Below, one piece after another: positions 42,858-63,998 of a stretch of 64,000 nucleotides of DNA. The stretch comes from a virus. Each line of letters opens with the position of its first letter. The stretch's first letter is position 1. Under the pieces are notes generated by a model, which ran no database searches, was not told where the DNA came from, and saw only the letters and a program-made list of their open reading frames with translations. Location of the stretch: positions 46,951 through 110,950 of IMG/VR virus record IMGVR_UViG_3300027736_000027; one strand, 5' to 3'. Made by a program: the position numbers and the translations under genes.

Positions 42858-45182
42858 CTATACGAGACCAAGTATCGTCTTTAATTGAGATATTACTGAG
42901 TCTGCGGTAATTAATTTAGAACATTCAAATTGTCTATCTGTACCTTTGTGTATCGGACACCAATTCCAGTCACTTGGATCTAACCTGTGTGTATTAAAAC
43001 AACCTGCACATTTACCAGCCGGCGAACAAATTCTAGTGGTATTGGTAAGTGGTTCAGTATAGGCATGTGAGAATCCTGAAATTAAGATAGTTGGAGTTCC
43101 TAGTGCCCAAGCTAACCAACTCAGACCGCTGCCGATTCCAATAAAAGCCTCAGATTTTGAAATTTCAGAAATAGCCGCCTCAATTGGACCGCTTGGTAAT
43201 TTTCTAATACCAGTAGGCTGAATATTTCCCATGAAACCTGAATCTTCTCTTGAAATTAGGACAACTTCATAATTATGGGAACTACACCAGTCAACAACCT
43301 CTTGCCAACCAGTTGGATTATTCCAATATTTAGCCTGACATGTTGCATGAATTGCAATTGCAACCTGTTTCTTTTTAGTTTCAGTTGGAATACTTAATTT
43401 TGGAACAACTTCTTGATAGTCAAGCCCTAAAATATCAAATGCAGTTTTTTGCATTGGTTGATTTTTAGTTTCATTAGGATTCATATTTGGATTTAATTCT
43501 TCATTTTCACCATAATACCACCCAATTGAGTATAGGGCTTTTACATCGTGTACTTCATCTCCCGGTTTAATAAATTCTATTTCTGGATAGGTTTTTTCAA
43601 AAAAATCATTTTGAAAAGTAGAGCATATAACTTTACACTTGTGTTTTTTACGAAATTCTTCAACTGCTGGAAACCAGGCTAGGGTATCACCTAATGATTT
43701 TGAATCAAGCGAAATATAGACACGTTTATCTAATAGATCTAATTTTTTGTTAAACACAATTTCTCCGGACGAAAGGTCTTTTACGGTTATTAACCAGTCA
43801 ATAAAATAGGTTTTACTGGTTTTAATCCACATACTATTTGAAATTTCTCCAGAGTGTTCAACTTTGCCGGTTGATTGATTTATAAATTCAACCCAATATT
43901 GATTAGGATCGCCTCCGGATAACTCAATATGTGCGCCTCTAACAAAATGATGGCCAATATTTAGCGGTTTGCTAGCAGCTGAGTTCACACGGTTAATGAT
44001 TTCAGACTGACTATTAATATGATCCATTGTCTCTTTTGCAATTTTATCCCAATTAAAATTTTTATGAATTTCCTTGGCCTGGGATAGTGCCTCCTTTTTA
44101 TATTTAGCCCAATTGGTATAGGCAGATCTCATTACCTTTGCTAGGTCTACAAAGTCAGGCTCATAATAGTTTCCAATACTCTCATTAAAATGAGCATAGG
44201 TACTTTCACTAATCGGCCTTTCACCAACTATTTTAACTGGTAAACCTTTACCTTCTGCAAATTCTAATTGAGCTGAGCAGTTTGAATAGATTGATGGAGT
44301 TCCACAAGCCATTGCCTCAATTAATGGAAGATTCCAACCTTCGGCTCGGGCACATGAAAGAAATACGTTAGTTGACTTTAATAATTTAATATATTCTTCT
44401 CTAGGTGGTAGGTGTAATACTTTAAGGCGGTCATCAGTAAAGTTATAATGGGCAAGTCTCTCTTCTGTACCGGTTAGCCCATCACCAGAGTATGGATTAT
44501 CAATACTTAATATTAGGTCAACTGGTTCATCTTTTGAAAATTCAGATAAAAAAGTTTCTATTAATTCCTTGGTTGACTTTCGGTAATCCCATCTTCCAAA
44601 TATAGAAAAGGTAAATCTGCCATTACTTGTTAGTGGATGGCTAACCTCTTCTGGAAAAAATATTTCAGAGTCAACGCCTTCTGGTATAACAAATATTTTA
44701 TCAGCTGGATAACCTTGAGCAATCGTACAGTCACGTTGCCATTTTGAAGGAACCCATAATTCATTAAAGTCTAATAGTCTATTAAAAAAAGCTTCAGGTT
44801 GTAAAGTTGATTCCCAAACATTATAGGCAATTGAATAGCCTTGATAGTCTTGATAAAAATAGTGATGATTTGTTTCATTTAAAACTACGTTAATATCTGC
44901 TTTGCCTGGATTATGCCAATTTTTATAAATTGGATAGTCAGACAGCCGCTTATTATGATCCCATAAACTTTGTTGAACTAACATTGTTTTTAGGGTATTA
45001 TCTAAATACGGCTCACCATTATGTGGTTCATCTGAATAATTAGTCCAGCTTTTACCTATTGTAAAATTTCTAACTTCAACTGGTGTATACTTTGATAGGG
45101 TTTTAAAAAATGACTGAGCATGATTATTATAACCGGTGGTTCCAATAAACGAAGTATGAGCCTTTATTTTTAAATTTGACAT
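42858..45182 (-). CDS. Fusion of a GT4 (GT-B) glycosyltransferase and an Aah/TibC-like autotransporter O-heptosyltransferase domain
   Basis: N-half: VWEST, WVPSKW, GRWDYRK, EGWNLPLIEAMACGTP. C-half: SLGDTLAWFPAVEEFRKKH, KYWNNPTGW, FIGIGSGLSWLAW and Cys cluster CAGCFN...WCP.H.GTDRQFECSK. Confidence 0.85.
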   Translation of the reverse strand: MSNLKIKAHTSFIGTTGYNNHAQSFFKTLSKYTPVEVRNFTIGKSWTNYSDEPHNGEPYLDNTLKTMLVQQSLWDHNKRLSDYPIYKNWHNPGKADINVVLNETNHHYFYQDYQGYSIAYNVWESTLQPEAFFNRLLDFNELWVPSKWQRDCTIAQGYPADKIFVIPEGVDSEIFFPEEVSHPLTSNGRFTFSIFGRWDYRKSTKELIETFLSEFSKDEPVDLILSIDNPYSGDGLTGTEERLAHYNFTDDRLKVLHLPPREEYIKLLKSTNVFLSCARAEGWNLPLIEAMACGTPSIYSNCSAQLEFAEGKGLPVKIVGERPISESTYAHFNESIGNYYEPDFVDLAKVMRSAYTNWAKYKKEALSQAKEIHKNFNWDKIAKETMDHINSQSEIINRVNSAASKPLNIGHHFVRGAHIELSGGDPNQYWVEFINQSTGKVEHSGEISNSMWIKTSKTYFIDWLITVKDLSSGEIVFNKKLDLLDKRVYISLDSKSLGDTLAWFPAVEEFRKKHKCKVICSTFQNDFFEKTYPEIEFIKPGDEVHDVKALYSIGWYYGENEELNPNMNPNETKNQPMQKTAFDILGLDYQEVVPKLSIPTETKKKQVAIAIHATCQAKYWNNPTGWQEVVDWCSSHNYEVVLISREDSGFMGNIQPTGIRKLPSGPIEAAISEISKSEAFIGIGSGLSWLAWALGTPTILISGFSHAYTEPLTNTTRICSPAGKCAGCFNTHRLDPSDWNWCPIHKGTDRQFECSKLITADSVISQLKTILGLV

Positions 45183-46585: not shown

Positions 46586-49500
46586 TTATAATTCTATCCA
46601 AGAGCTTTCAGGATTAAAATGTATTATTATTTTTGTATTCGTATTGCTGCTCCAAAATGTATGCCCTATTAATCTAACCGCATTTCCAACCGTTGTTGGT
46701 GCTGTTTTAGTCATACTGCCGGCAGTCGTAGCCATATATAAAGGCTCTCCAGATTTTACAACAGCTGCATAAGTAGCAGTTTCAACAAATCCATTAATTA
46801 ATATAGAAGTTGGATTGGTTGATGTTGAAGATTTAACACAAATACCTAACATATTAAATGCAGCTGCTGAGTTTGCTGCGGTTGCATCAGCTAATATCCA
46901 AGTGTTGGTTTGTGTCCTATAACATAATTGGCCAAAGGTAATTGTTCCTCCTGCTGTTTCTGAATATAGTACAGTACCTTGATAATAATTACTAGTCCAT
47001 GAATTTAAATCTCCAAGTACAGAGGTTACTCCATCTTGTATTGTTCCAGCTAATGGAGTTGGATTATATCCAGCAACTAATGAAGTTGTTGTCGCTTTTA
47101 TATTAGTTCCATCATCCGTTATTGTTGAATTACCAACAGTTGAAGAAGATGTGAATTTAACAAGGGTATTATTTGTTCCAGAAACAGCAACAGAAGTACC
47201 GCTAGAACCTGAAGTTCCAGAAGAACCACTTGACCCATTTGAACCAGTTGCACCACTAGAACCTGAAGTACCACTAGACCCACTTGAACCAGTTGCACCA
47301 CTTGATCCACTAGAACCTGAAGAACCAGAAGTTCCAGAAGAACCGTTTGACCCGGTTGCGCCACTAGAACCTGAAGAACCTGAAGTTCCACTTGAACCAT
47401 TTAAACCGTTTGAACCAGTTGCACCGGACGTACCGCTAGAACCTGAAGAACCTGAAGTTCCGCTTGAACCGTTTGAACCAGTTCCGCCTGATGTACCAGA
47501 AGTTCCATTTACTCCAGAAATACCTGAAGTACCTGAACTGCCACTAATACCAGAAGTTCCACTTGAACCGCTTGAGCCTGATGTTCCTGAACTACCGCTT
47601 GAACCTGAGCTGCCGCTTGTTCCACTTGAACCAGAAGAGCCTGATGTTCCAGAGCTACCGCTTGAACCTGATGTTCCACTAGAGCCATTTGACCCAGTTG
47701 CACCTGACGTACCAGAGGTTCCGCTTGAACCATTTATACCAGAAGTTCCACTTGAACCTGACGAACCTGAAGAACCGGAAGTTCCTGAACTACCACTAGA
47801 ACCTGAAGAACCTGAACTACCGCTTGAGCCTGAAGAACCAGAAGTTCCACTTGAACCTGAAGTTCCGCTTGAACCATTTGCACCGTTTAAGCCAGACGTA
47901 CCACTTGAACCTGAGTTACCGGAAGTTCCACTTGACCCGCTAGAACCTGAATTACCAGAAGTACCGCTTGAACCATTTGCACCAGAAGTACCAGAAGTTC
48001 CATTTACTCCAGAAATACCAGAAGTACCACTTGAACCGCTTAAACCTGATGTTCCAGAACTACCACTTGAACCTGAAGAACCAGAAGTTCCACTTGAACC
48101 AGAAGTTCCGCTTGAACCTGAACTACCACTTGAACCTGATGTACCTGAGCTACCACTTGAACCAGAAGTTCCAGATATTCCAGATGTTCCACTTGAACCT
48201 GATACGCCTGATGTTCCAGAACTACCGCTTGAACCGGAAGAACCTGAACTACCGCTTGAACCTGAAGAACCGGAAGTCCCACTTGAACCTGAAGTTCCAG
48301 AGCTACCGCTTGAACCTGATATACCAGAAGTTCCACTAGAACCATTTATACCAGAAGTACCGCTTGATCCTGAACTACCACTTGAACCTGATGTACCTGA
48401 GCTACCGCTTGTTCCACTTGAACCAGAAGAACCAGAAGAACCGTTTGAACCAGTTGCACCAGATGTACCAGATGTACCATTTATTCCTGAAATACCAGAA
48501 GTACCGCTTGAACCTGAAATACCAGAAGTACCGCTTGAGCCTGAACTACCGCTTGAGCCTGATGTTCCACTTGAACCACTTGACCCAGAAGTTCCACTTG
48601 AACCTGAGATACCGCTTGTTCCACTTGAACCAGAAGAACCTGATGTTCCACTTGACCCGGAACTACCGCTTGAACCAGAAGTTCCGCTTGAACCGCTTGA
48701 TCCAGAAGTTCCGCTTGATCCAGATTCACCACTTGAACCAGAAGAACCTGAACTACCACTTAAACCTGAGCTACCGCTTGTTCCACTTGAACCAGAAGTT
48801 CCAGAAGAACCATTTATACCAGAAGTTCCTGAACTACCGCTTGAGCCGGAAGTTCCACTAGAACCATTAGACCCAGATGTTCCAGAAGAACCTGAAGTTC
48901 CACTTGAACCATTTATACCAGAAGTACCGCTTGAACCCGATGTTCCGTTTATTCCTGAAATACCAGAAGTACCGCTTGAACCTGATATACCGCTTGAACC
49001 AGAAGAACCAGAAGTACCGCTTGAACCTGACGAACCGCTTGAACCTGAACTACCGCTTGAACCTGAAGTTCCAGAAGAACCAGCTGTACCAGAAGTACCG
49101 CTTGAACCAGAAGTTCCACTAGAACCAGAAATACCGCTTGAACCGCTTGAACCGGACGAACCACTTGAACCTGATATACCAGAAGTTCCGCTTGAACCTG
49201 AACTACCGCTTGAACCTGAAGAACCGGAAGTACCATTTATTCCTGAAATACCAGAAGTTCCGCTTGAACCACTTGAACCAGAAGTTCCAGAAGTTCCACT
49301 AGAACCAGAAGAACCTGATGTTCCACTAGAACCAGAAGTTCCACTAGAACCAGAAGTTCCACTAGAACCAGAAGAACCAGAAGTTCCACTAGAACCACTT
49401 GAACCTGAAGTTCCACTTGAACCATTTATACCCGAAGTTCCTGAACTACCATTTATACCTGACGTTCCTGAACTGCCGCTTGAACCAGAAGTTCCACTTG

Positions 49501-52500
49501 AACCTGAAGAACCTGATGTTCCGCTAGACCCACTAGAACCTGATGTTCCGCTAGACCCAGAAGTTCCACTTGAACCATTTATACCCGAAGTTCCACTTGA
49601 ACCATTTATACCCGAAGTTCCGCTTGAACCGTCTATTCCATTTACTCCGCTTAATCCACTTGAACCAGATGTTCCTGAACTACCGCTTGACCCTGATGTT
49701 CCAGAGCTACCACTTGAACCAGACGTACCACTTGAACCGTTTATACCACTTGTTCCGCTTGAACCGTTTATACCACTGGTTCCGCTTGAACCAGAAGTTC
49801 CACTAGAACCAGAAGAACCAGAAGTACCGCTTGAACCGGAAGAACCAGACGTTCCACTCGATCCTGAAGAACCAGAAGTTCCACTTGATCCTGATGTTCC
49901 ACTTGAACCGTTTATACCACTGGTTCCACTTGAACCAGAAGTTCCACTTGAACCAGAAGAACCAGACGTTCCGCTTGAACCAGAAGTTCCTGAAGAACCT
50001 GATACACCGCTTGATCCACTAGAACCAGAGGTTCCGCTAGAACCGCTTGAACCAGAGGTTCCGCTTGAACCGCTTGAACCAGATGTTCCACTTGAACCAG
50101 AGGTTCCAGAAGAACCATTTATACCGGAAGTTCCGCTTGAACCGGATATACCAGAAGTTCCGCTTGAACCGTTTATACCTGAGGTTCCAGAAGAACCAGA
50201 TGTTCCATTTATTCCTGAAATACCCGAAGTACCACTTGAACCAGAAGTTCCTGAAGTTCCACTTGAACCAGATGCACCGCTTGATCCTGAAGAACCAGAA
50301 CTACCACTTGATCCTGAAGAACCTGAAGTTCCGCTTGATCCTGAAGAACCAGAAGTTCCCGAACTACCACTTGAACCGGATGTTCCACTTGATCCTGAAG
50401 AACCAGAAATTCCACTTGAACCAGAAGAACCTGAAGTTCCACTTGAACCAGAAGAACCTGAAGTTCCACTTGAACCTGAAGAACCTGAAGTTCCACTTGA
50501 ACCTGAAGAACCTGAAGTTCCACTTGAACCACTTATTCCTGAAGAACCAGATGTTCCACTAGAACCATCGGAACCTGAAGTTCCACTTGAACCGCTTGAA
50601 CCAGAAGTTCCACTTGAACCAGAGCTGCCACTTATTCCACTTGAACCTGATGTTCCGTTTATTCCTGAAATACCAGAGGTTCCAGAAGAACCAGTTGCAC
50701 CGCTTGAACCAGAAGTACCCGAAGTTCCTGAGCTACCGCTTGAACCTGATGTTCCACTTGAACCGCTTGATCCAGAAGTTCCAGAAGAACCAGATGTTCC
50801 TGAACTACCACTTGAACCGGCTGTTCCACTTGAACCAGAATTTCCACTAGAACCAGAAGTTCCACTAGATCCATCAAAACCAGAAGTTCCAGAAGAACCA
50901 GAAGTTCCGCTTGAGCCTGAAGTTCCTGAGCTACCGCTTGAACCAGAGGTTCCGCTAGTCCCACTTGAACCTGAAGTTCCAGTAGTACCAGAAGTTCCGC
51001 TTGAACCTGAAATACCAGAAGTTCCAGAACTACCGCTTGAACCATCTGAACCAGAAGTTCCTGAACTACCGCTTGAACCAGATGCACCACTTGATCCTGA
51101 AGAACCAGAAGTTCCACTAGAACCAGATGTACCATTTATTCCGGATATACCAGAAGTACCAGAAGAACCGGAATTTCCGGAACTACCACTTGAACCAGAG
51201 GTTCCACTTGAACCTGAAGAACCAGAAGTTCCACTTGAACCTGAAGAACCAGAAGTTCCAGAAGTTCCAGAACTACCGCTTGAACCAGAAGTTCCACTAG
51301 ATCCATCAAAACCAGAAGTTCCGCTTGAACCGGAAGTTCCTGAAGAACCTGAAATACCAGAAGTTCCTGAAGAACCTGATGTTCCGCTTGAACCTGAATT
51401 ACCGGAACTACCACTTGAACCAGAAGAACCAGAAGTTCCATTTATTCCAGAAATACCTGAAGTACCACTTGAACCATTTATACCAGATGTTCCTGAAGAA
51501 CCAGAAGTTCCACTTGAACCTGAAGAACCAGAAGTTCCTGAAGAACCGCTTATTCCTGAAGAACCTGATGTTCCCGAACTACCACTTGAACCAGAAGTTC
51601 CTGAACTACCACTTGAACCAGAAGTTCCACTAGAACCATCAAAACCAGAAGTTCCACTTGAACCTGAAGTTCCACTAGAACCATCGGAACCTGAAGTTCC
51701 ACTTGAACCTGAAATACCAGAAGTTCCTGAAGAACCAGAGGTTCCTGAAGAACCAGATGTACCATTTATACCTGAAATACCTGAAGTTCCACTTGAACCG
51801 GAAATACCAGAAGTGCCGCTTGAACCATTTAAACCTGAAGTTCCACTAGAACCTGATGTACCAGATGTGCCGCTTGAACCTGAAGAACCTGAACTACCAC
51901 TTGAACCGGAAGAACCATCATTACCAGAAGTTCCACTTGAACCTGAAGTTCCAGAAGAACCAGAAGTCCCACTTGAACCTGATATACCAGAAGTTCCTGA
52001 GCTACCGCTTGAACCTGATATACCAGAAGTTCCTGAGCTACCGCTTGATCCTGAAATTCCACTTGAACCAGATGTACCATTTACTCCAGAAATACCTGAT
52101 GTTCCAGAAGAACCATTTATACCAGAGGTACCACTTGAACCTGAAGAACCAGAACTACCGCTTGAGCCTGAAGAACCAGAAGTTCCACTTGAACCAGAAG
52201 TTCCTGAGCTACCGCTTGAGCCTGAAGAACCAGATGTGCCGCTTGAACCTGATGTACCAGAAGACCCGTCTATTCCACTTGATCCAGAAGTTCCGCTTGA
52301 ACCTGAAGAACCAGAAATTCCACTTGAACCGGAAGTACCGGAAGTTCCACTTGAACCATTTATACCAGAAGTACCACTTGAACCTGAAGAACCGGATGTA
52401 CCATTTATTCCTGAAATACCAGATGTTCCACTAGAACCATTTATACCGGATGTTCCCGAACTACCACTAGAACCAGAGGTTCCGCTTGAACCAGAAGAAC

Positions 52501-55500
52501 CAGAAGTTCCACTTGAACCTGAAGAACCAGAACTACCGCTTGAACCATCTGAACCTGAAGTTCCTGAGCTTCCACTTATTCCTGATGTTCCACTTGAGCC
52601 ATCTGAACCAGATGTTCCACTTGATCCAGCTAAACCAGAAGTTCCGCTTGATCCGCTTGAACCAGATGTACCGCTTGAACCCGATGTTCCACTTGAACCT
52701 GAACTACCACTTATTCCGCTTGATCCTGAAGTACCGTTTATTCCAGAAATACCTGACGTTCCACTTGAACCGTTTATACCAGAAGTACCACTTGAACCTG
52801 AAGAACCAGAACTACCACTAGAACCAGAGGTTCCACTTGAACCAGAAGAACCAGAAGTTCCACTTGAACCGGAAGTTCCAGAAGAACCAGAAGTCCCACT
52901 TGAACCAGAAATACCTGAACTACCACTAGATCCATCGGAACCAGATGTTCCGCTTGAACCTGAAATACCAGAAGTTCCGCTTGATCCAGAAGTTCCTGAA
53001 CTACCACTTGAACCTGAAATACCACTTGAACCGGATGTACCACTTGAACCGGATGTTCCATTTACTCCAGAAATACCAGAAGTTCCACTTGAACCATTTA
53101 TACCAGAGGTTCCGCTTGAACCAGAAGAACCAGAAGTTCCACTTGAACCTGAAGAACCAGAAGTTCCACTTGAACCTGAAGTTCCTGAAGAACCAGAGGT
53201 TCCTGAAGATCCAGCTGTTCCACTTGATCCAGAAGAACCAGAAGTTCCACTTGAACCGTTTATACCAGATGTTCCACTAGAACCAGAAGTTCCGCTTGAA
53301 CCATCTGACCCGGCTGTTCCTGAAGTACCGTTTGAGCCTGAAGTTCCTGAGCTACCGCTTGAACCAGAGCTACCACTTATTCCACTTGACCCTGATGTAC
53401 CATTTATTCCAGAAATACCTGAAGTACCGCTTGAACCGTTTATACCCGAAGTTCCACTTGAACCTGAAGAACCGGAAGTTCCACTTGAACCTGAGCTACC
53501 ACTTGTTCCACTTGAACCTGATGCACCTGATGTACCAGAAGTTCCTGAGCTACCGCTTGAGCCTGAAGAACCAGATGTGCCGCTTGAACCTGATGTACCA
53601 GAAGACCCGTCTATTCCACTTGATCCAGAAGTTCCACTTGAACCGGAAGAACCAGATTCACCGCTTGAACCAGAAGTTCCGCTAGAGCCTGAACTACCTG
53701 AAGTTCCACTTGAACCGGAAGTTCCATTTACTCCAGAAATACCGGATGTACCGCTTGAACCATTTATACCACTTGTTCCGCTTGAACCAGAAGTTCCACT
53801 AGAACCGCTTGAACCAGAAGTTCCGCTTGAACCAGATTCACCACTTGAACCGCTTGATCCTGAGGTTCCGCTTGAACCAGATGTTCCACTTGAACCTGAT
53901 ATACCAGAGGTTCCACTTGAACCAGATGACCCATCAAAGCCTGAAGTTCCACTTGAACCAGATGTACCGCTTGAACCGCCTATACCACTAGATCCAGAAG
54001 TTCCACTTGAGCCATTTATACCTGATGTACCACTTGAACCAGAAGAACCGGCCGTACCGTTTATTCCTGAAATACCAGAAGTTCCAGAAGAACCATTTAT
54101 ACCGGATGTTCCAGAACTACCACTTGAGCCAGATGCACCACTTGAACCTGAAGAACCAGATGTACCACTTGAACCTGAAGAACCTGATGTTCCAGAAGAA
54201 CCATCAGAACCGGAAGTTCCTGAACTACCACTTATTCCGGATGTTCCACTTGAACCATCTGAACCAGATGTTCCACTAGAACCAGCTAAACCAGAAGTTC
54301 CACTAGAACCAGCTAAACCAGAAGTTCCACTTGAACCGGAAGTTCCAGAGCTACCACTTATTCCGGATGTTCCACTTGAACCTGAAGTACCGTTTATTCC
54401 AGAAATACCTGATGTTCCACTTGAACCGTTTATACCAGACGTACCACTTGAACCTGATGTTCCGGAACTGCCGCTTGAACCTGATGTTCCACTTGAACCG
54501 TCTATTCCTGAAGAACCAGAAGTTCCACTAGAACCGGATATACCTGAAGTTCCTGAGCTACCGCTTGAACCATCAGAACCTGAACTACCGCTTGAACCGG
54601 ATATACCAGATGTACCGGAGCTACCGCTTATTCCTGAAGTACCACTTGAACCTGAAATACCACTTGAACCGGATGTACCACTTGAACCGGATGTACCACT
54701 TGAACCGGATGTACCATTTACTCCAGAAATACCCGATGTTCCAGAAGAACCATTTATACCAGATGTTCCACTTGAACCTGATGTACCAGAAGAACCAGAT
54801 TCACCACTTGAACCAGAAGAACCAGAAGTTCCACTAGAGCCTGAACTACCGCTTGACCCATCAGAACCGGAAGTTCCACTTGAACCTGCTGTACCAGAAG
54901 TACCGCTTGAACCTGAACTACCACTAGATCCATCGGACCCAGAAGTTCCACTTGAACCATCAGAACCGGAAGTTCCTGAGCTTCCACTTATTCCTGATGT
55001 TCCAGAAGAACCGGAAATTCCACTTGAACCAGAAGTTCCGTTTATTCCAGAAATACCAGAAGTCCCACTTGAACCTGAAATACCTGAGCTACCGCTTGAA
55101 CCATCATTACCTGATGTACCGGAAGTTCCACTTGAACCTGATATACCTGATGTTCCAGAACTGCCGCTTGAGCCTGAACTGCCGCTTGAGCCGGATATAC
55201 CGGAAGTTCCGGAGCTACCGCTTGAACCATCAAAACCTGAAGTTCCACTTGAACCGGATATACCAGATGTACCAGAGCTACCGCTTATTCCTGAGGTTCC
55301 ACTTGAACCTGAAATACCGCTTGAACCTGATGTACCATTTATTCCAGAGATACCTGATGTTCCGCTTGAACCATTTATACCACTTGTTCCACTTGAACCT
55401 GATGTACCAGAAGAACCGTCTGAACCAGATGTTCCAGCTGTACCGGATGTACCTGAAGAACCAGATATACCGCTTGAACCTGAAGTACCAGAGCTACCAC

Positions 55501-58144
55501 TTGAACCGGAAGTACCACTTGAACCGTCTATTCCCGAAGAACCAGAACTACCGCTTGAACCTGAAATACCAGAAGTTCCACTTGATCCCGATATACCAGA
55601 AGTTCCACTTGATCCCGATATACCAGAAGTTCCACTTGAACCAGATGTACCATTTATTCCGGATATACCAGAAGTACCAGAAGAACCTGAAATACCCGAG
55701 CTACCACTTGAACCAGAAGAACCAGAAGTTCCACTTGAACCAGATGAACCGCTTGAACCGGAAGAACCAGAACTACCGCTCGAACCAGCCGTACCAGAAG
55801 AACCAGCCGTTCCTGAAGTACCACTTGAACCGTCTATACCGCTTGAACCTGATGTACCGGAGGTACCATTTACCCCTGAAGTTCCTGAGCTACCACTTAT
55901 TCCTGATGTTCCTGAGCTACCACTTATTCCGCTTGAACCTGAAGTACCGTTTATACCAGAAATACCAGAAGTGCCACTTGAACCATTTATACCGCTTGTT
56001 CCACTTGAACCCGATGTACCAGAAGAACCAGAAGTTCCGCTTGAACCAGATTCACCACTTGAACCGCTTGATCCTGAGGTTCCGCTCGAACCAGAAGAAC
56101 CAGAGCTACCGCTTATTCCACTTGAACCTGAAGTTCCAGATGAACCGTCAATTCCAGAAGTACCGCTTGAACCTGAAATACCGGAGCTACCGCTTGAACC
56201 TGAAGTTCCTGAGCTACCACTTATTCCACTTGAACCTGATGTTCCATTTATTCCTGAAATACCAGAAGTTCCGCTTGAACCATTTATACCACTTGTTCCG
56301 CTTGAACCATTTATACCAGACGTACCACTTGAACCTGATGTTCCAGCTGTACCAGAAGTTCCGCTTGAACCATCTGAACCTGATGTTCCTGAGCTACCGC
56401 TTGAACCAGAAGAACCGCTTGAACCTGAAGAACCAGAAGTTCCACTTGAACCTGAAGAACCAGAAATTCCACTAGAACCAGAAGTTCCAGAAATTCCACT
56501 TGTTCCACTTGAACCTGAACTACCGCTTATTCCACTTGAACCTGATGTTCCATTTATACCAGAAATACCGGAAGTTCCGGAAGAACCATTTATACCAGAA
56601 GTACCACTTGAACCAGATGTTCCTGAACTACCGCTTGAACCATCTGAACCGGAAGAACCACTTGAACCAGAAATACCCGAACTACCACTTGAACCGTCAG
56701 AACCTGATGTACCAGAAGTTCCATTTGAACCTGCTGCTCCATTTATTCCTGATATACCTGAAGTTCCAGAAGAACCATTTATACCACTTGTTCCACTAGA
56801 ACCGGCCGTTCCACTAGAACCAGAAGTACCGGAAGTTCCGCTTGAACCATTAGACCCAGAGGTTCCAGATGAACCAGAAGTTCCGCTTGAACCAGATGTT
56901 CCATTTATACCGGAAATACCAGAAGTACCGCTTGATCCATTTATACCACTTGTTCCACTTGAACCATTAGAACCAGAAGTTCCACTAGAACCATTAGACC
57001 CAGAAGTTCCAGACGAACCAGAAGTTCCACTTGAACCGGCTGTACCAGAAGTACCGTTAGAACCAGACGTTCCGTTTATTCCTGAAATACCCGAAGTTCC
57101 ATTTGAACCCGACGTACCGCTTGAACCAGAAGTTCCACTTGATCCTGAGGTTCCACTTGAACCGCTTGATCCTGAGGTTCCACTTGAACCAGAAGAACCA
57201 GAGCTACCACTTAAACCATCAGAACCCGAAGTTCCACTTGAACCAGAAGAACCAGAGCTACCGCTTGAACCTGAAGTTCCAGAAGAACCGTCTATACCAG
57301 ATGTTCCCGAGCTTCCGCTTAAACCTGAAGTTCCAGAGCTTCCACTTGAACCCGATGTACCAGAAGAACCAGAAGTTCCGCTTGAACCAGATGTTCCAGA
57401 CGAACCTGCTGTTCCTGAGCTTCCGCTTAAACCTGAGGTTCCAGAGCTTCCACTTAAACCTGAGGTTCCAGAAGAGCCACTAGTTCCACTTGACCCAGTA
57501 ATACCTGATGTACCAGACGTTCCACTTGTACCTACACTATCCGCAAGGGTATCACCAATATAATAAAAACCACGAATATATGGATTAATTGTTCCATAGG
57601 TTGAAGTTAAATAGGTAACCATTGAATCTGATAATAATAAAAGACCATTATCATAATTAAATACCCAGCTTACCTCAGTGCCAGCATTAGCCGTTGTTGT
57701 AATTTGAGTACCGCCACTTGCTGGATCTCCATTCCAGAATTCAATAGCCCAACCGATTGATGGTGAGCCGCTTGCTTGTAAAATCTTTTGAGGTTGAATC
57801 CAATCAAGTATTTGCGTTGTTATATCTCCATATGTACCGGCTACTACCCAGGTAGTATTATTACCAGATATAACTTGAGTTAATCTTATTCCAGTGGTAT
57901 ATGCATTTGCAACTATTCCATCTAGTGGATTACCGTTACCTAACAGAGCAAGAGCTGCTGCCTTATTTGCAACTGGGTTAGATTTAATTGCAGCAAACTG
58001 AGTTAATACCCTATTTGCTGCGATATTTGGATTAAAAGCAAATTTGGCCTCATACCAACTAAAATTAGAGGCAGCATCTATTACGTTTGCTGCTTGAACT
58101 TTAAATACGAGTTTTAATCTTTCACTATCAGTATATCCGGCCAT
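46586..58144 (-). CDS. Giant 3852-aa Ser/Gly/Thr-rich collagen-like (Gly-X-Y) fibre protein
   Basis: ~204-aa N-domain, 3447 aa of G-[STI]-[SND] triplets, and a ~200-aa C-domain resembling capsid cement/decoration domains. Confidence 0.85.
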   Translation of the reverse strand: MAGYTDSERLKLVFKVQAANVIDAASNFSWYEAKFAFNPNIAANRVLTQFAAIKSNPVANKAAALALLGNGNPLDGIVANAYTTGIRLTQVISGNNTTWVVAGTYGDITTQILDWIQPQKILQASGSPSIGWAIEFWNGDPASGGTQITTTANAGTEVSWVFNYDNGLLLLSDSMVTYLTSTYGTINPYIRGFYYIGDTLADSVGTSGTSGTSGITGSSGTSGSSGTSGLSGSSGTSGLSGSSGTAGSSGTSGSSGTSGSSGTSGSSGSSGTSGLSGSSGTSGIDGSSGTSGSSGSSGSSGSSGTSGSDGLSGSSGSSGSSGTSGSSGSSGTSGSSGTSGSSGTSGSNGTSGISGINGTSGSNGTSGTAGSSGTSGSSGTSGSNGSSGTSGSNGSSGTSGINGSSGTSGISGINGTSGSSGTSGSSGTSGSNGSSGTSGTSGSSGTAGSSGTSGINGSSGTSGISGINGAAGSNGTSGTSGSDGSSGSSGISGSSGSSGSDGSSGSSGTSGSSGTSGINGSSGTSGISGINGTSGSSGISGSSGSSGTSGISGTSGSSGISGSSGSSGTSGSSGSSGSSGSSGSSGTSGSDGSSGTSGTAGTSGSSGTSGINGSSGTSGINGSSGTSGISGINGTSGSSGISGSSGTSGSSGSSGISGSSGTSGIDGSSGTSGSSGISGSSGSSGSSGTSGSSGSSGESGSSGTSGSSGTSGSSGTSGINGSSGTSGISGINGTSGSSGISGSSGTSGISGSSGTSGVNGTSGTSGSSGIDGSSGTSGTAGSSGTAGSSGSSGSSGSSGSSGSSGTSGSSGSSGSSGISGSSGTSGISGINGTSGSSGTSGISGSSGTSGISGSSGTSGISGSSGSSGSSGIDGSSGTSGSSGSSGTSGSSGISGSSGTSGTAGTSGSDGSSGTSGSSGTSGINGSSGTSGISGINGTSGSSGISGSSGTSGISGSSGTSGISGSSGTSGFDGSSGSSGTSGISGSSGSSGSSGSSGTSGISGSSGTSGTSGNDGSSGSSGISGSSGTSGISGINGTSGSSGISGSSGTSGISGSSGTSGSDGSSGTSGSDGSSGSSGSSGTSGTAGSSGTSGSDGSSGSSGSSGTSGSSGSSGESGSSGTSGSSGTSGINGSSGTSGISGVNGTSGSSGTSGSSGTSGSSGISGSSGTSGISGSSGTSGISGSSGSSGSDGSSGSSGTSGISGSSGTSGSSGIDGSSGTSGSSGSSGTSGSSGTSGINGSSGTSGISGINGTSGSSGTSGISGSSGTSGSSGTSGLAGSSGTSGLAGSSGTSGSDGSSGTSGISGSSGTSGSDGSSGTSGSSGSSGTSGSSGSSGASGSSGSSGTSGINGSSGTSGISGINGTAGSSGSSGTSGINGSSGTSGSSGIGGSSGTSGSSGTSGFDGSSGSSGTSGISGSSGTSGSSGTSGSSGSSGESGSSGTSGSSGSSGTSGSSGTSGINGSSGTSGISGVNGTSGSSGTSGSSGSSGTSGSSGESGSSGSSGTSGSSGIDGSSGTSGSSGTSGSSGSSGSSGTSGTSGASGSSGTSGSSGSSGTSGSSGSSGTSGINGSSGTSGISGINGTSGSSGISGSSGSSGSSGTSGSNGTSGTAGSDGSSGTSGSSGTSGINGSSGTSGSSGSSGTAGSSGTSGSSGTSGSSGTSGSSGSSGTSGSSGSSGTSGINGSSGTSGISGVNGTSGSSGTSGSSGISGSSGSSGTSGSSGTSGISGSSGTSGSDGSSGSSGISGSSGTSGSSGTSGSSGTSGSSGSSGTSGSSGSSGSSGSSGTSGINGSSGTSGISGINGTSGSSGISGSSGSSGTSGSSGTSGSSGSSGTSGLAGSSGTSGSDGSSGTSGISGSSGTSGSDGSSGSSGSSGSSGTSGSSGSSGTSGSSGSSGTSGINGSSGTSGISGINGTSGSSGSSGTSGINGSSGTSGTSGSSGISGSSGSSGTSGSSGIDGSSGTSGSSGTSGSSGSSGSSGTSGSSGTSGSSGSSGSSGSSGSSGTSGINGSSGTSGISGVNGTSGSSGISGSSGSSGTSGISGSSGSSGTSGISGSSGTSGSSGTSGSSGTSGNDGSSGSSGSSGSSGSSGTSGTSGSSGTSGLNGSSGTSGISGSSGTSGISGINGTSGSSGTSGSSGTSGISGSSGTSGSDGSSGTSGSSGTSGFDGSSGTSGSSGSSGTSGSSGSSGTSGSSGISGSSGTSGSSGSSGTSGSSGTSGINGSSGTSGISGINGTSGSSGSSGSSGNSGSSGTSGSSGTSGISGSSGTSGSSGTSGFDGSSGTSGSSGSSGTSGTSGSSGSSGTSGSSGSSGTSGSSGSSGNSGSSGTSGISGINGTSGSSGTSGSSGSSGASGSSGSSGTSGSDGSSGSSGTSGISGSSGTSGTTGTSGSSGTSGTSGSSGSSGTSGSSGTSGSSGTSGFDGSSGTSGSSGNSGSSGTAGSSGSSGTSGSSGTSGSSGSSGTSGSSGSSGTSGTSGSSGATGSSGTSGISGINGTSGSSGISGSSGSSGTSGSSGSSGTSGSDGSSGTSGSSGISGSSGTSGSSGSSGTSGSSGSSGTSGSSGSSGTSGSSGSSGISGSSGSSGTSGSSGSSGTSGSSGSSGTSGSSGSSGSSGSSGSSGASGSSGTSGTSGSSGTSGISGINGTSGSSGTSGINGSSGTSGISGSSGTSGINGSSGTSGSSGTSGSSGSSGTSGSSGSSGTSGSSGSSGVSGSSGTSGSSGTSGSSGSSGTSGSSGTSGINGSSGTSGSSGTSGSSGSSGTSGSSGSSGTSGSSGSSGTSGSSGTSGINGSSGTSGINGSSGTSGSSGSSGTSGSSGSSGTSGSSGLSGVNGIDGSSGTSGINGSSGTSGINGSSGTSGSSGTSGSSGSSGTSGSSGSSGTSGSSGSSGTSGINGSSGTSGINGSSGTSGSSGSSGTSGSSGSSGTSGSSGTSGSSGTSGSSGSSGTSGTSGSSGSSGTSGISGINGTSGSSGSSGSSGSSGTSGISGSSGSSGSSGSSGISGSSGTSGSSGTSGTAGSSGTSGSSGSSGSSGSSGSSGTSGSSGSSGISGSSGTSGISGINGTSGSSGTSGINGSSGTSGSSGTSGSNGSSGTSGSSGSSGTSGINGSSGTSGSSGTSGSSGLSGSSGSSGSSGESGSSGTSGSSGSSGTSGSSGSSGSSGTSGSSGSSGTSGISGSSGTSGSSGSSGTSGSSGSSGSSGTSGISGSSGTSGISGINGTSGTSGATGSNGSSGSSGSSGTSGSSGTSGSSGSSGSSGTSGINGSSGTSGISGSSGSSGTSGSSGTSGSSGSSGSSGSSGSSGSSGTSGVSGSSGTSGISGTSGSSGSSGTSGSSGSSGSSGTSGSSGTSGSSGSSGSSGTSGLSGSSGTSGISGVNGTSGTSGANGSSGTSGNSGSSGSSGTSGNSGSSGTSGLNGANGSSGTSGSSGTSGSSGSSGSSGSSGSSGSSGTSGSSGSSGSSGTSGINGSSGTSGTSGATGSNGSSGTSGSSGSSGTSGSSGSSGTSGSSGSSGSSGTSGSSGSSGTSGISGSSGTSGISGVNGTSGTSGGTGSNGSSGTSGSSGSSGTSGATGSNGLNGSSGTSGSSGSSGATGSNGSSGTSGSSGSSGSSGATGSSGSSGTSGSSGATGSNGSSGSSGTSGSSGTSVAVSGTNNTLVKFTSSSTVGNSTITDDGTNIKATTTSLVAGYNPTPLAGTIQDGVTSVLGDLNSWTSNYYQGTVLYSETAGGTITFGQLCYRTQTNTWILADATAANSAAAFNMLGICVKSSTSTNPTSILINGFVETATYAAVVKSGEPLYMATTAGSMTKTAPTTVGNAVRLIGHTFWSSNTNTKIIIHFNPESSWIEL
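47192..57532 (-). repeat. 10,341-nt coding repeat = 1149 x 9 nt (Gly-X-Y), synonymously diverged, with a ~300-340-nt higher-order period
   Basis: Distance from the first to the last triplet is an exact multiple of 9; the GISG[IV]NGTS marker recurs periodically. Confidence 0.9.
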
Positions 58145-58394: not shown

Positions 58395-60857
58395 TTAATT
58401 AAAGGCAACGGTTATTGTATCAATTTTTATTCCACTATTACAAATTCTAATTTCAACATATATTCCATTTGTTGCATTAAATCCTCCAAAGGTACCATTA
58501 ATTGTGCCTCCGCTTGAAGAGCCTAATCTAATTCCTGGAGTATCAGTACCAGAGGTACTTCCATCAACAAATGTACCATTATCATATTCTGCACCGTGTA
58601 GCAGAAGAGGAGGTGAACCTGTCCCATAGTTACCAGATGTTGCTCCAATTTTTCTAACAAATACTTTTAAATATTGATTTTGTAAATCACTTAGTGCGGT
58701 ACCAACAAAGGTTCCAGAAAATACCATTGAAAAGCTTGGAATTGGAGTAACTGAGGCACTTAGTGTTGTATAAAATAACCTATAAAAACTGGCATCATTT
58801 GAAAAACTTGTATAGTTAGGATTTGTACCATTTTTATCAGGTTTATAGGCAGCAAGATTAGGTTGAATGGTTGCCGTACTTGGATCAGTTAAAAAGAATC
58901 TATCTGGTCTAACAATTGTTCCACCAACAACACAAGCTTCGCCATTTGATAACGCAGCGGTTGGATCCCATGCAGTTGAATAGTTTGAGGCTAATCTCCA
59001 TTGTTCATCATTAAAATACTCAATATATTGAGTGCTATTACCTGAGGTTGAATATGTGTCTACTAGTATTGAAGTACTTGCCGAAGTTTTGGTTGCACTA
59101 TTGCTCCATGGATCATATAATATAGCTGAGGCACTTCCACTAGTTCCACGATATCTATAATTTGAGGTAGAAACATCCCAACTTGCATAGGAATAGCTGT
59201 CATCAGTATCGTCATATGCATTAGTCCAGCCAGTCCAGGTACCTGGCCCTTGAGACCATGAATATTCAGCAAGAGCTGTAACTCCATAATTTGCTGCAGT
59301 AAATGAAAAATTTGTATTTGCTGCGCTTGCTCGACCCTGTGTATTTTGATTTAAATTATTAATTTTATCAACTGCCCCTTCGAATCTAGAACCAAGAATA
59401 TAATATTCAATGCCACTAAGGTGTTTTGTTAAAATATTACCTGAGGTACCTGATTCAGAAATGGTAGCAACCGACGCACCTCCAAAACTTGGAGTAGAGC
59501 CATTTAAGTCATAAAAAGCGTCAGGTTGAATATATGAATATTCAGTCCCGCCGTCAGTTGCCGTATCAGTAGTATGTGTTACTTTAATATGATATCTGCC
59601 TCCGCTTAATGAAGTTGTAGTAAATACAGTTCCAACATTTACCGCTGCTGCAATTGAGGCTTTATATTTTAAACCGTCTGCTGCATAATTAGTGATAGTT
59701 ACAGTTATTCCAGCATTCGGCGAAGAAGAGGTATTTACAGCATTTGCTGTGATTGATGGAGTTGTATAGGTTGCAAGAACCGTGGTTCCATCTCCGCTAA
59801 ACATTTCGACTTTAACCGTTGAATTTCCACCAACTCCCGTTACCGCATTTGCTGTTGAAAAAGTAACAGTTGGTTGAGAGGTTGTATGAGTTACAGAGGC
59901 TTGAGAGGTTGCGGCCCATAGTGAATTTGAACCTCCACCTGTATAATATGGAGAACCTTCTGTTGTTGGCGAGCTAATTCGAACAGTTCTTCTAGTAATT
60001 CCACTTTCACTAACTGCTCCTGAACTTGTTCCAGAAGTTGAATTATAATTACTTGCATAGGTTGGTGTTGGAATATAGATGTTGATTGTTGAAGCGTCTC
60101 CAGGTTTTTCAGCTGCATAAACACTGGTTCCAACAAAGTTAACCTTTGCATATGATCCAACAAGTCCGCCTTCATCATAAAATTGAATTGAACCGCCGGT
60201 TGCAGCTACATCAACTTGACCTGATGTTCCAGAAGTTGAAACGGTAAGGCCTGAACCAAAATTTATTATTTGAGTATTTGATAAAACAGAAGTTCCGCTT
60301 GTCTGTATTGCAACAGAAGAGCCAGTTCCAGATGTTCCACTTGAACCGCTTATGCCGGAAGTTCCAGAAGAACCATTTATACCTGAAGTTCCAGAAGAAC
60401 CACTTGAACCGCTTATGCCGGAAGTTCCAGAAGAACCATTTATACCTGAAGTTCCAGAAGAACCACTTGAACCGCTTATGCCGGAAGTTCCAGAAGAACC
60501 ACTTGAACCGCTTATGCCGGAAGTTCCAGAAGAACCACTTGAACCGCTTATGCCGGAAGTTCCAGAAGAACCACTTGAACCGCTTATGCCGGAAGTTCCA
60601 GAAGAACCACTTGAACCGCTTATGCCGGAAGTTCCAGAAGAACCACTTATGCCTGATGTACCTGAAGTTCCACTTATACCTGATGTACCTGAAGTTCCAC
60701 TAGAGCCTGATCCACCGGTTCCGCTTGTTCCAGCCTGTGGAGAATCATTCCAATATACTACTGTTCCAGTATCATTTATTGCTAGAAATCTAGTTTTAGT
60801 ATTATCTTGAGAAACCCCGGCAAGGTCAATTTGTTTAATTTTAATCTTATTCGACAT
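58395..60857 (-). CDS. Structural protein with a short Ser/Gly/Thr Gly-X-Y repeat and a Ser/Thr-rich beta region
   Basis: ~140 aa of SGTSGISGSS repeats near the N-terminus; GATAAATA upstream at 60885-60892. Confidence 0.75.
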   Translation of the reverse strand: MSNKIKIKQIDLAGVSQDNTKTRFLAINDTGTVVYWNDSPQAGTSGTGGSGSSGTSGTSGISGTSGTSGISGSSGTSGISGSSGSSGTSGISGSSGSSGTSGISGSSGSSGTSGISGSSGSSGTSGISGSSGSSGTSGINGSSGTSGISGSSGSSGTSGINGSSGTSGISGSSGTSGTGSSVAIQTSGTSVLSNTQIINFGSGLTVSTSGTSGQVDVAATGGSIQFYDEGGLVGSYAKVNFVGTSVYAAEKPGDASTINIYIPTPTYASNYNSTSGTSSGAVSESGITRRTVRISSPTTEGSPYYTGGGSNSLWAATSQASVTHTTSQPTVTFSTANAVTGVGGNSTVKVEMFSGDGTTVLATYTTPSITANAVNTSSSPNAGITVTITNYAADGLKYKASIAAAVNVGTVFTTTSLSGGRYHIKVTHTTDTATDGGTEYSYIQPDAFYDLNGSTPSFGGASVATISESGTSGNILTKHLSGIEYYILGSRFEGAVDKINNLNQNTQGRASAANTNFSFTAANYGVTALAEYSWSQGPGTWTGWTNAYDDTDDSYSYASWDVSTSNYRYRGTSGSASAILYDPWSNSATKTSASTSILVDTYSTSGNSTQYIEYFNDEQWRLASNYSTAWDPTAALSNGEACVVGGTIVRPDRFFLTDPSTATIQPNLAAYKPDKNGTNPNYTSFSNDASFYRLFYTTLSASVTPIPSFSMVFSGTFVGTALSDLQNQYLKVFVRKIGATSGNYGTGSPPLLLHGAEYDNGTFVDGSTSGTDTPGIRLGSSSGGTINGTFGGFNATNGIYVEIRICNSGIKIDTITVAFN
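60451..60630. repeat. Five perfect tandem 36-nt repeats encoding SGISGSSGSSGT
   Basis: GTTCCAGAAGAACCACTTGAACCGCTTATGCCGGAA x5, with another copy at 60388-60423. Confidence 0.9.
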
Positions 60858-60913: not shown

Positions 60914-61870
60914 TTAGGACCTCATTTCTTTTGCATAAATAATTGCATCTACGTATTTAGCAGATGCAGTATCCTGATCTATATTGGAAAAATCAAATTC
61001 AAATGGATTTCTATTAATAAATTCGCCTTTATAAAAAACCTTGCCTTCTTGATTTGAGGTAATTCCAGCATTGTGCATTATATTATTATTTAAATATTCA
61101 GCTAAATTAGAACTACCCCAACTAAATGAAAGGCCTGGCTCAATTACAGTTTGTGCACCTAATTTCCAAGCTCCCCAAAGAACTGCCCACATATCAGCAC
61201 ACCATTTTTGAACTGGATTATACACCTGTAATTCTTCTGGAGTTAAGGTAGTTCTTTCTAAATTTTCTCGATCTACCATATATTTGTAAAGAGCTAGTGA
61301 ATCATCTTTTACACCTTTCCAATAATTAGCGGTTACACCTTTCATTAAATATTGGGCTCCACCTGAATTTTTTTGATTTTGATCAACCACCTCTGGTAAA
61401 ATTCCAACAATATTACACATATCAACAAATAGATCATTTGATTTTGATCTAATATATTCAGCACCAATATACGAAATTGTATCACTTAAATACCAATAAA
61501 GATCCCCGTGCATTTCATCAAAATTTGGTAATTCTCTAAAAATAATATCTGAATCATGATATAAAATAGTTTCACCTCTAAGTTCTGGATACTTAATAAA
61601 ATGCTGTTCAATAATATCAGGTCTTAGAATTGGAATATATCCAAAATTATCAATAGGGGTTTTTTTATAGCTAAAAAATCTAACATATGGATACTTTGCG
61701 CTTAATGATAATAGTTCTACGGAAGGTTCATTATCATAGGCCCATAGAATTTCAATCCAATTTGGATTAATTCCGTGTTTAATAAAATTATGAATCATTA
61801 CCTCAACTTGCCAATGAAAATACGGCACATCTGGTTGAGCTGATAAAAATATGATTTTCTTTGTTAACAT
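60914..61870 (-). CDS. GT-A glycosyltransferase resembling plant peptidyl-serine galactosyltransferase / hydroxyproline arabinosyltransferase (SERGT1/HPAT)
   Basis: YFHWQVEVMIHNF, YIPILRP, YHDSDIIF (DxD) and KWCADMWAVLWGA correspond to recalled SERGT1 motifs YFDWQ..GLMHSF, YPAINKP, ILDADM and WISEMYGYSFGA. Confidence 0.65.
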   Translation of the reverse strand: MLTKKIIFLSAQPDVPYFHWQVEVMIHNFIKHGINPNWIEILWAYDNEPSVELLSLSAKYPYVRFFSYKKTPIDNFGYIPILRPDIIEQHFIKYPELRGETILYHDSDIIFRELPNFDEMHGDLYWYLSDTISYIGAEYIRSKSNDLFVDMCNIVGILPEVVDQNQKNSGGAQYLMKGVTANYWKGVKDDSLALYKYMVDRENLERTTLTPEELQVYNPVQKWCADMWAVLWGAWKLGAQTVIEPGLSFSWGSSNLAEYLNNNIMHNAGITSNQEGKVFYKGEFINRNPFEFDFSNIDQDTASAKYVDAIIYAKEMRS

Positions 61871-61916: not shown

Positions 61917-63998
61917 CTATGCACAAGAACCGGTAGTGGTAAACATAGTACCATCCCAAGTATACCAATTTACCCCGCTTCCTCCATCTAAATTACCATA
62001 AACGCCAGCCGTCGCTAGGGTTGTTAATGCAGTATCTGAGTAAATAGAAGCACCATTAGCATACGCAGAGGCTAGTGTTGAATCAGTTGCAGTATAGACC
62101 GTAAATGCGGCATTTGCATTGGCTGAACAGAACTTAGGATAATTAGCGTTGGAATATCCGGTTAGTGTTTGGTATGCAGGCGGAGCCGCTGTTGTTGTAC
62201 TCGTAGTGCTGGTTGGGCCAGCAGTTGTGGTACTTGTTGTACTCGTTGGCGCAGCTGTGGTTGTACTCGTAGTACTCGTTGAGGTACTGGTAGTAGTCGG
62301 TGCAGCAGTTGTTGTACTTGTACTGGTTGGAGCAGCAGTTGTTGTACTTGTAGTAGTTGAACCGCCTGCACAAGTACCAGTAGTGGTAAATGTATTACCG
62401 TCCCAAGTATACCAAATGGTTCCGCCACCTCCATCTGAATTACCATAAATGGCAGCAGCAGCTAGGCTACTTAATGCAGTGTCTGAGAAAATCTGAGCAC
62501 CATTAGCATACGCAGAGGCTAGGGTTGAGTCAGTTGCAGTATAGACAGTAAATGCTGCATTTGCATTAGCTGCACAGAATTTAGTTGAATTACTATTAGA
62601 ATAGCCGGTTAGTGTTTGGAATGATGGAGCAACCGTGGTCGTACTAGTAGTACTAGTTGAGGTACTTGTTGTACTGGTTGGAGCAGCAGTTGTTGTACTG
62701 GTAGTACTGGTTGATGTACTCGTAGTAGTTGGGGCTGCAGTAGTTGTACTGGTAGTACTAGTTGATGTGCTTGTAGTAGTCGGTGCAGCTGTTGTTGTAC
62801 TTGTAGTACTGGTTGATGTACTGGTAGTAGTTGGGGCTGCAGTAGTTGTACTGGTAGTACTAGTTGAGGTACTGGTAGTACTCGTTGATGTACTGGTAGT
62901 ACTAGTTGAGGTACTGGTAGTACTCGTTGATGTACTGGTAGTACTGGTTGAGGTTGTTACTCGAATTACTGGTATATTAATAGTACAAGTAGGTGAAATA
63001 AATTTATAAGTTCCATATGAACTATTAATTGCTCCCAAATAGTAATTTTTTCTATCAAATACCCATGGTGTTTTAATTCCTGCACCTAAATAGTATTGAA
63101 TTCCACTGTCTAATTCAGTAAACATAACTGAATATGGGCCGATTGGCGAGCCTATAAAAGTTATAGTGGTTGGATTATTAAATGGATTAGGGGTTGCAGT
63201 TAATGAGTTTGCGCATGACGCTGTTGTTGTAGATGTGGTAGAGGTAGATGTAATTCCACCAGCATAGGCTTGAGTAGTTGTCGTGGTTGTATTAAGCTCA
63301 GGTACCGGTACGGAAATTGTATACGAACAGTTTGATGAATTTGTAAATACATATGTTCCAACAGTAGATGGAATACCTGAATAGTTTGGATTAGATAAGT
63401 TAAAATTCCAACCTAAGCTAATCATTGATCCAATTATTCCGGTTAAGTCGTGTACTCCTCCTAATGAATCGGTAAATACGACATTAAATGGCCCAGCTGG
63501 AGTTCCATAAAAAGTAATTTGAGTTGGTGCTAATACACTAGGTATTAAATAATTTATTAAATTAGGCGCACATGTAGTAGTTGTAGTTAAGTTAAGCGTA
63601 GTTGTTGTACTTGTTGAACTAGTCGTAGTTGTGATACTCTGGCCTTGAATTAAATAAAATGGACTAAATGAATCTACCTGTGCATAAATTAATCGGCTTG
63701 CATAGTTTGGAATATATAAATCTCCTGCAATATCTCCAACCTTAACGGTTTCATCAACTAGAACTGAATCAACCTCATGAAATATTTTAATTAAATTAAA
63801 CTCGGCTTCACTTAGTGATTGAGGTACTTTAAATTTAACAATTGCTCCAGTTGGATAGATTCCAGTTGGATCGGATATTGTATATGATAATATTGTATTA
63901 CTTAATGAATAACCGGTAGGTAAAGTGGCAGAGCCGGCGGTTAAATTAGGTATTTTACAAATAGTAATTGGGCCAGGCTCAGTTGGGGTTCCAATTAT
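61917..63998 (-). CDS. Mucin-like Thr/Ser/Pro-rich protein with duplicated Cys-bounded domains; 5' end lies beyond the window
   Basis: Frame is open from 63998 to the listed ATG at 63425 (hand translated); TTSTSTSTT and TTTAAP tracts; two ~85-aa near-identical domains. Confidence 0.8.
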   Translation of the reverse strand: MIGTPTEPGPITICKIPNLTAGSATLPTGYSLSNTILSYTISDPTGIYPTGAIVKFKVPQSLSEAEFNLIKIFHEVDSVLVDETVKVGDIAGDLYIPNYASRLIYAQVDSFSPFYLIQGQSITTTTSSTSTTTTLNLTTTTTCAPNLINYLIPSVLAPTQITFYGTPAGPFNVVFTDSLGGVHDLTGIIGSMISLGWNFNLSNPNYSGIPSTVGTYVFTNSSNCSYTISVPVPELNTTTTTTQAYAGGITSTSTTSTTTASCANSLTATPNPFNNPTTITFIGSPIGPYSVMFTELDSGIQYYLGAGIKTPWVFDRKNYYLGAINSSYGTYKFISPTCTINIPVIRVTTSTSTTSTSTSTTSTSTSTTSTSTSTTSTSTSTTSTTTAAPTTTSTSTSTTSTTTAAPTTTSTSTSTTSTTTAAPTTTSTSTSTTSTTTAAPTSTTSTSTSTTSTTTVAPSFQTLTGYSNSNSTKFCAANANAAFTVYTATDSTLASAYANGAQIFSDTALSSLAAAAIYGNSDGGGGTIWYTWDGNTFTTTGTCAGGSTTTSTTTAAPTSTSTTTAAPTTTSTSTSTTSTTTAAPTSTTSTTTAGPTSTTSTTTAAPPAYQTLTGYSNANYPKFCSANANAAFTVYTATDSTLASAYANGASIYSDTALTTLATAGVYGNLDGGSGVNWYTWDGTMFTTTGSCA

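Follow-up and report, generated by a model that had tools for sequence, protein, structure and literature searches.

The window analysed here comprises the last 64 kb (64,000 nucleotides) of a viral contig of 110,950 bp from IMG/VR (IMGVR_UViG_3300027736_000027; CheckV completeness 41%), in which T4-like tail genes were detected and whose source virus is probably a jumbo phage. It contains an open reading frame (ORF) for a glycosyltransferase (GT), separated by gaps of 46 and 56 nt from the two co-oriented fibre-type genes that flank it (Table 1). Residues 8-312 of the GT protein align, at E=4.8e-63, with positions 3-290 of the 293-position hidden Markov model (HMM) of phrog_4417, a family annotated as 'unknown function', and the protein has neither a Pfam family at E<=10 nor an NCBIfam model. 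Its maximum 19-residue hydropathy is 1.07, no membrane anchor is present, and the structural model begins with strand beta-1 at residue 7. The family is large and named by no database: 2802 matches were found in a protein collection clustered at 90%, corresponding to 848 representative clusters at 50% identity, and members are present on at least 596 IMG/VR contigs and in 77 phage records of GenBank, for the most part from Lactobacillus, Enterococcus, Staphylococcus, Lactococcus, and Clostridium phages, plus one Chryseobacterium phage. Nearly all of these GenBank copies are devoid of functional annotation, most being labelled 'hypothetical protein'.

Table 1. Features of the GT locus and precursor peptides of related loci (positions in the window, or in the locus named).
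Feature	Position	Strand	Basis or remark
GT gene, 318 aa; soluble glycosyltransferase of GT-A fold, family phrog_4417	60914..61870	(-)	open ORF
DxD motif D106-S107-D108 within HDSD, predicted metal and nucleotide-sugar ligand	61547..61555	(-)	both Asp invariant in 53 homologs and 40 fusions
H266 (within IMHNAG), predicted to be the third ligand of the metal, as in GT8-type enzymes	61073..61075	(-)	invariant column; role suggested by GT-A/GT8 knowledge
WCADMWAVLW (W223-W232), most conserved stretch of the family	61175..61204	(-)	W223 and M227 invariant
Mucin-like Thr/Ser-rich protein, upstream, co-oriented, truncated where the contig ends; predicted as substrate	61917..63998	(-)	46-nt gap to GT
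Collagen-like tail fibre, 820 aa, downstream; possible though doubtful second substrate	58395..60857	(-)	Pfam Collagen and tail-fibre PHROGs
Giant Gly-Ser-Ser / Gly-Thr-Ser collagen-like fibre, 3852 aa, same block	46586..58144	(-)	longest Ser/Thr run 5
Protein of 774 aa in which a GT4 domain is fused to a protein O-heptosyltransferase of the Aah/TibC type	42858..45182	(-)	TIGR04414 E=2e-81, 273.8 bits vs cutoff 200; Pfam GT1/GT9
Thr-run precursor peptides beside fused GT (Bacteroidota)	L041:5636-5872, L051:253-498, L060:5608-5856, L075:5615-5863		clear Thr runs

An earlier note on this DNA had singled out four ordered motifs in the GT, all of which were found in the protein, with positions confirmed by translation: YFHWQVEVMIHNF (residues 17-29), YIPILRP (residues 78-84), HDSD (residues 105-108), and the tryptophan-rich stretch starting at W223, which also served as the search pattern chosen by the locus scans. 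In an alignment of 53 homologs at 33-76% identity, residues Y78, D106, D108, Y134, G171, Q221, W223, M227, F249, H266, F279, and K281 occupy invariant columns, and W20, N28, W228, L231, and W232 are conserved in at least 90% of the sequences. Because the four motifs coincide with invariant or nearly invariant columns, they are not due to chance, and they represent the conserved core of a real protein family. D106, D108, and H266 are invariant also across the 40 fusion proteins; judging from the sequences, this combination of a DxD motif and a distal His fits metal and nucleotide-sugar binding of the GT-A/GT8-like type, with the predicted residue roles given in Table 1.

The fold of the protein is of the Rossmann-like GT-A type and can be superposed on GT8, GT24, and GT77 structures. 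A fold search in BFVD returned family members first, followed by GT8-type viral proteins, none of them named HPAT-like. The phage GT shares 6-12% identity with GT8-like retaining GT-A enzymes (glycogenin, LgtC, GlyE, and the xylosyltransferase domain of LARGE1, together with GT24 UGGT and GT77 Skp1 alpha-GalT), most of which act on glycans. It nevertheless differs from this group in the sequence searches, since no match to Pfam GT8 (PF01501, Glyco_transf_8) was obtained for the GT at E<=10 or among 53 members at E<=1, and the family profile, when compared with PDB sequences, reached no solved GT, returning only spurious TALE-repeat matches and a weak Stealth/GNPTAB match. Direct assignment of the GT to a Pfam or NCBIfam family failed.

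Three independent contexts, namely Firmicutes phages, other phages, and Bacteroidota loci for peptides made by ribosomes and modified after translation (RiPPs), tie this GT family to runs of Thr and Ser residues. In 80 IMG/VR loci, an ORF on the same strand was always located upstream of the GT, and a Ser/Thr run of at least 6 residues was present in 58 of these 80 upstream ORFs; such a run occurred in 12 of the 75 ORFs located downstream and in 26 of the 414 remaining ones. The enrichment was retained after dereplication at 90% GT identity (43/56 upstream ORFs versus 24/258; Fisher p=3e-24) and at 70% GT identity (20/30 versus 17/138; p=4e-9). Likewise, at loci from genomes and metagenome-assembled genomes (MAGs), a Ser/Thr-run neighbour was found at 9 of 25 solo GTs, versus 1 of 490 background ORFs. 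One run-carrying neighbour has a major-tail-protein N-terminal domain, and several of the run-carrying proteins examined consist of small Cys-containing domains strung on Ser/Thr linkers. As a separate observation, a radical SAM/SPASM gene lies directly downstream of the GT on a 176-kb viral contig (L151:4921-6006), which hints at further peptide modification.

In siphophages and prophages of Firmicutes, the GT is embedded in the structural module, in temperate as well as lytic phages. Among cultivable relatives, the GT gene directly follows the gene for the major tail (tube) protein in the Enterococcus phage phiFL1A and the Clostridium phage phiCTP1, and in vipetofem it comes after the major head protein gene, with a gap of about 300 bp. 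The tail protein of 200-218 residues encoded upstream of the GT ends in a poly-Thr tail in 8/8 Firmicutes loci, and that of vipetofem, about 1.8 kb from the GT, likewise ends in such a tail. As a GT-less control, eight homologs of the tail protein were taken from phages of Paenibacillus, Streptococcus, Erysipelothrix, Clostridium, Bacillus, Butyrivibrio, and Ruminococcus. The family profile detected no GT in any of these eight control genomes, positive controls scoring 1e-94 and 1e-85. All eight control proteins stop shortly past a shared W[FY]..VY motif and contain no Ser/Thr run longer than 4, and at all eight loci the chaperone and tape-measure genes come next after the tail protein gene. 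Since the GT-less controls are also without the poly-Thr tail, the tail and the GT appear to be gained or lost together. Further small ORFs with poly-Thr tails were noticed at the same locus as the GT in the Firmicutes prophages L070 (2353-2733 and 11815-12135), L071 (3866-4201), and L082 (3869-4189).

On Bacteroidota chromosomes, the GT domain constitutes the N-terminal half of fusion proteins of 400-900 residues. A location of these fused copies in polysaccharide loci was ruled out, as Pfam shows RiPP genes instead: the neighbours encode radical SAM proteins, LanC-like proteins, the N-terminal domain of lantibiotic dehydratases, and C39-peptidase ATP-binding cassette (ABC) exporters, and RiPP markers were found within 6 kb of the fused GT in 41 of 55 loci. 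Small peptides whose leader has the form LxLxKx5L...GG are encoded at about 30 Bacteroidota loci, and the Cys-rich cores of these peptides often begin with a Ser/Thr stretch. The leader is of the type described for the class I lanthipeptide precursors of Bacteroidetes (PMC7268733), in a study that makes no mention of this GT. Four loci carry precursors with clear Thr runs (Table 1), three of which (L041, L060, and L075) are encoded 129-157 nt upstream of the GT. Judging from these sequences, the double-glycine-leader precursors may give rise to glycosylated lanthipeptide-like RiPPs; no glycosylated product of Bacteroidetes lanthipeptide clusters is reported in the literature consulted, including PMC7268733.

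In the phage studied here, the gene upstream of the GT encodes what is by far the protein richest in Ser/Thr runs among the 134 ORFs called on the contig: 14 of its runs reach 5 residues or more, the maximum being 39, and a total of 174 residues lie in runs. It likewise consists of small Cys-containing domains in a string, with Ser/Thr linkers between them, and, given the family-wide pairing of the GT with such runs, it is the likely substrate. The suggestion of the earlier note that the flanking proteins may be substrates is likely to apply to the mucin-like protein, and is doubtful for the Ser-Gly fibre on the other side, whose longest Ser/Thr run is 4. Another possible second substrate is a protein of 264 residues encoded outside the window (contig 19685-20479, minus strand), the sole other run-rich protein on the contig, which contains five Ser/Thr runs, the longest of 22.

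These observations lead us to consider it likely that the GT transfers sugar directly onto the Thr/Ser hydroxyls of unstructured Thr/Ser runs, probably with retention of configuration. In the infected cell, the enzyme would bind a nucleotide sugar through Mn or Mg at D106, D108, and H266 and would move the sugar to hydroxyls of long unstructured runs before virion assembly. Here the target would be the mucin-like protein, which would yield a virion with glycosylated stalks. Because the GT is the only annotated GT in the genome of phiFL1A, and because the pairing recurs across hosts of several phyla, it is predicted to act as the enzyme adding the first sugar.

Other genes of the fibre block deserve mention. 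The C-terminal half of the 774-residue fusion is of the Aah/TibC type (TIGR04414, autotransporter O-heptosyltransferase), which makes it a recognisable protein-serine glycosyltransferase beside Gly-Ser-Ser collagen-like fibres, and one may speculate that it is a more natural candidate than the GT for the Ser-rich fibres. An ORF of 75 residues between the two collagen-like fibre genes (window 58152-58379, minus strand) has no family match and may encode a fibre assembly factor. Long plus-strand ORFs over the fibre genes, such as that at window 47151-57563 (PEVPLEPE...), were read as mirror frames of the repeat and not as genes.

Several results weigh against direct transfer to Thr/Ser runs. In about one in four of the dereplicated phage loci, among them an entire clade (the IMG/VR loci L130-L134, L137, L138, L143, L145, and L150), no Ser/Thr run occurs within 4 kb, and these loci are exceptions to the pairing. 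In addition, related contigs inflate the raw pairing counts, a bias that dereplication corrects partly. Most of the closest structural neighbours are enzymes that lengthen glycans or use non-peptide acceptors, and the fold alone gives no sign of a peptide-initiating enzyme. Finally, two of ten downstream genes sampled in other phages encode further GTs, and in this phage the GT4 and Aah/TibC fusion could be the initiating enzyme.

The plant enzymes of families GT95 and GT96 (HPAT/SGT1) both retain configuration on peptide hydroxyls, and the phage GT might be an evolutionary branch of these plant and algal peptidyl O-glycosyltransferases, an origin that would be compatible with direct transfer and that we hold only tentatively. 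In the ESM Atlas, PF23452 was present on 22 of the 30 nearest named clusters (top cluster: 58% of members, score 0.96, 207/256 shared features) and DUF7164 on 6 of 30, with no row listing a GT8 cluster; however, the Atlas's own calibration rates 6/10 agreeing top matches as borderline. A distant relationship is plausible in view of the GT-A-like structure predicted for GT95 (PMC8476585) and of the kinship between GT95 and GT96 described in PMC8012813. In contrast, the PF23452 HMM (cutoff 23.9 bits) matched neither the GT protein nor the whole contig at E<=10, reached one of 53 family members at the noise level (E=0.23), and hit none of the 40 fusion proteins at E<=0.01. No PF23452 member was found in 301 genomes from the phylum to which a Myxococcales MAG belongs, in 401 from that of a gammaproteobacterial genome, or in 5 further genomes, and no DUF7164 member in 301 genomes from the phylum that includes a Clostridium genome. 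In all, about 1,000 sampled prokaryote genomes yielded neither PF23452 nor PF23741, and neither was detected on the GT's own contig. Divergent and compact members of the GT family provided no bridge to PF23452. The GT is moreover soluble, although membrane anchoring may not define prokaryotic relatives of HPAT/SGT1. No HPAT/SGT1 structure turned up in the PDB searches, and we know of none that has been solved. Thus, of the plant-like peptidyl Ser/Thr glycosyltransferase put forward in the earlier note, the pairing with a mucin-like neighbour is borne out, but kinship to GT95/96 is not established; we do not file the GT under these families and treat the relationship as a plausible lead from the ESM Atlas.

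The main alternative function would be the extension of a glycan begun by another enzyme, either the 774-residue fusion or a host enzyme, in the manner of GlyE or Skp1 alpha-GalT. Several structural neighbours of the GT act as glycan extenders, and some loci carry extra GTs. Nevertheless, we judge this function unlikely, since small phages such as phiFL1A have no second annotated GT, and since the Thr-run pairing spans Bacillota, Bacteroidota, and MAGs labelled Saccharibacteria and Proteobacteria, for which a common starter enzyme is improbable. Furthermore, a Pfam match is lacking for seven of the ten downstream genes sampled, and no more than the two mentioned are GTs. Still further from the data, and very improbable in our estimation, is a non-protein acceptor (host wall polysaccharide, teichoic acid, lipid, or phage DNA), with the Ser/Thr-rich neighbours marking a preferred site of accessory insertion: phage GTs are known to act on DNA as well as on surface glycans of the host (reviewed in PMC12619734) and the GT8-like LgtC and WbbM build polysaccharides, but the poly-Thr tail and the GT covary among homologous tail proteins, the same domain resides in RiPP clusters beside Thr-run precursors and not in polysaccharide loci, and the GT lies within the structural module of temperate and lytic phages. 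DNA glycosylation and lysogenic conversion were also judged unlikely from gene context.

Returning to direct transfer onto Thr/Ser runs, a broader and considerably more speculative proposal is that the family is the prokaryotic and viral counterpart of mucin-/extensin-type glycosylation, that is, a dedicated poly-Thr/Ser O-glycosyltransferase and distant sister of GT95/GT96 that would coat virion stalks and tail tubes in phages and glycosylate secreted lanthipeptide-like peptides in Bacteroidota. Should direct transfer itself prove true, O-glycosylated virion surfaces produced by one unnamed enzyme family would be present in many phages whose hosts are Firmicutes, Bacteroidota, or others, with a bearing on phage stability, adhesion to mucus and hosts, and immune recognition of therapeutic phages, as Enterococcus and Staphylococcus phages carry the GT. 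Glyco-engineering would gain a compact soluble enzyme with a simple poly-Thr tag, and a class of glycosylated RiPPs would be predicted in Bacteroidota.

Comparison with known systems places the GT beside several types of peptide glycosylation. With HPAT (GT95) and SGT1/SERGT1 (GT96), which belong to PF23452 and are its nearest named ESM neighbours, it shares a predicted GT-A-like fold (PMC8476585) and a predicted peptide-hydroxyl acceptor, which in the plant enzymes is located in repetitive wall proteins. However, HPAT/SGT1 are anchored in the Golgi membrane (PMC8012813), whereas the phage GT is soluble and has no HMM-level similarity to them, and their acceptors are hydroxyproline (Hyp) or the Ser of Ser-Hyp4, in contrast to the Thr runs predicted here. 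The dense O-glycosylation predicted for unstructured Ser/Thr stalks would be analogous to that performed by mucin-type ppGalNAc-transferases (GT27) and by the GTs of serine-rich-repeat adhesins (GtfA/B and GlyE), but the GT, which is viral and cytoplasmic, has neither the GT27/lectin nor the GT4 GtfA architecture and is a member of neither group. The Bacteroidota copies are encoded beside RiPP precursors, as are the GTs of glycocins and other glycosylated RiPPs (SunS-type GT2), although the GT domain is not GT2/SunS-like; their loci have GG-leader precursors, a C39-ABC exporter, and LanC/LanB-like genes in common with class I lanthipeptide clusters of Bacteroidetes (PMC7268733). In terms of function, the closest known system is the glycosylation of mycobacteriophage virions, which, according to the summary of Freeman et al. 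(2023) in PMC12619734, involves phage-encoded GTs and C-terminal glycans on subunits of the capsid and the tail tube. That system operates in other hosts, the present GT family, an unannotated sequence orphan, appears to be a different one, and the predicted acceptor here is poly-Thr; the target predicted in this phage is a large mucin-like protein and not a capsid or tube subunit. Nevertheless, as in phage virion glycosylation generally, the GT lies in a structural module next to a putative acceptor gene, and its Firmicutes relatives directly follow a tail-tube gene whose product has a poly-Thr C-terminus, a counterpart to the C-terminal glycans reported for mycobacteriophages.
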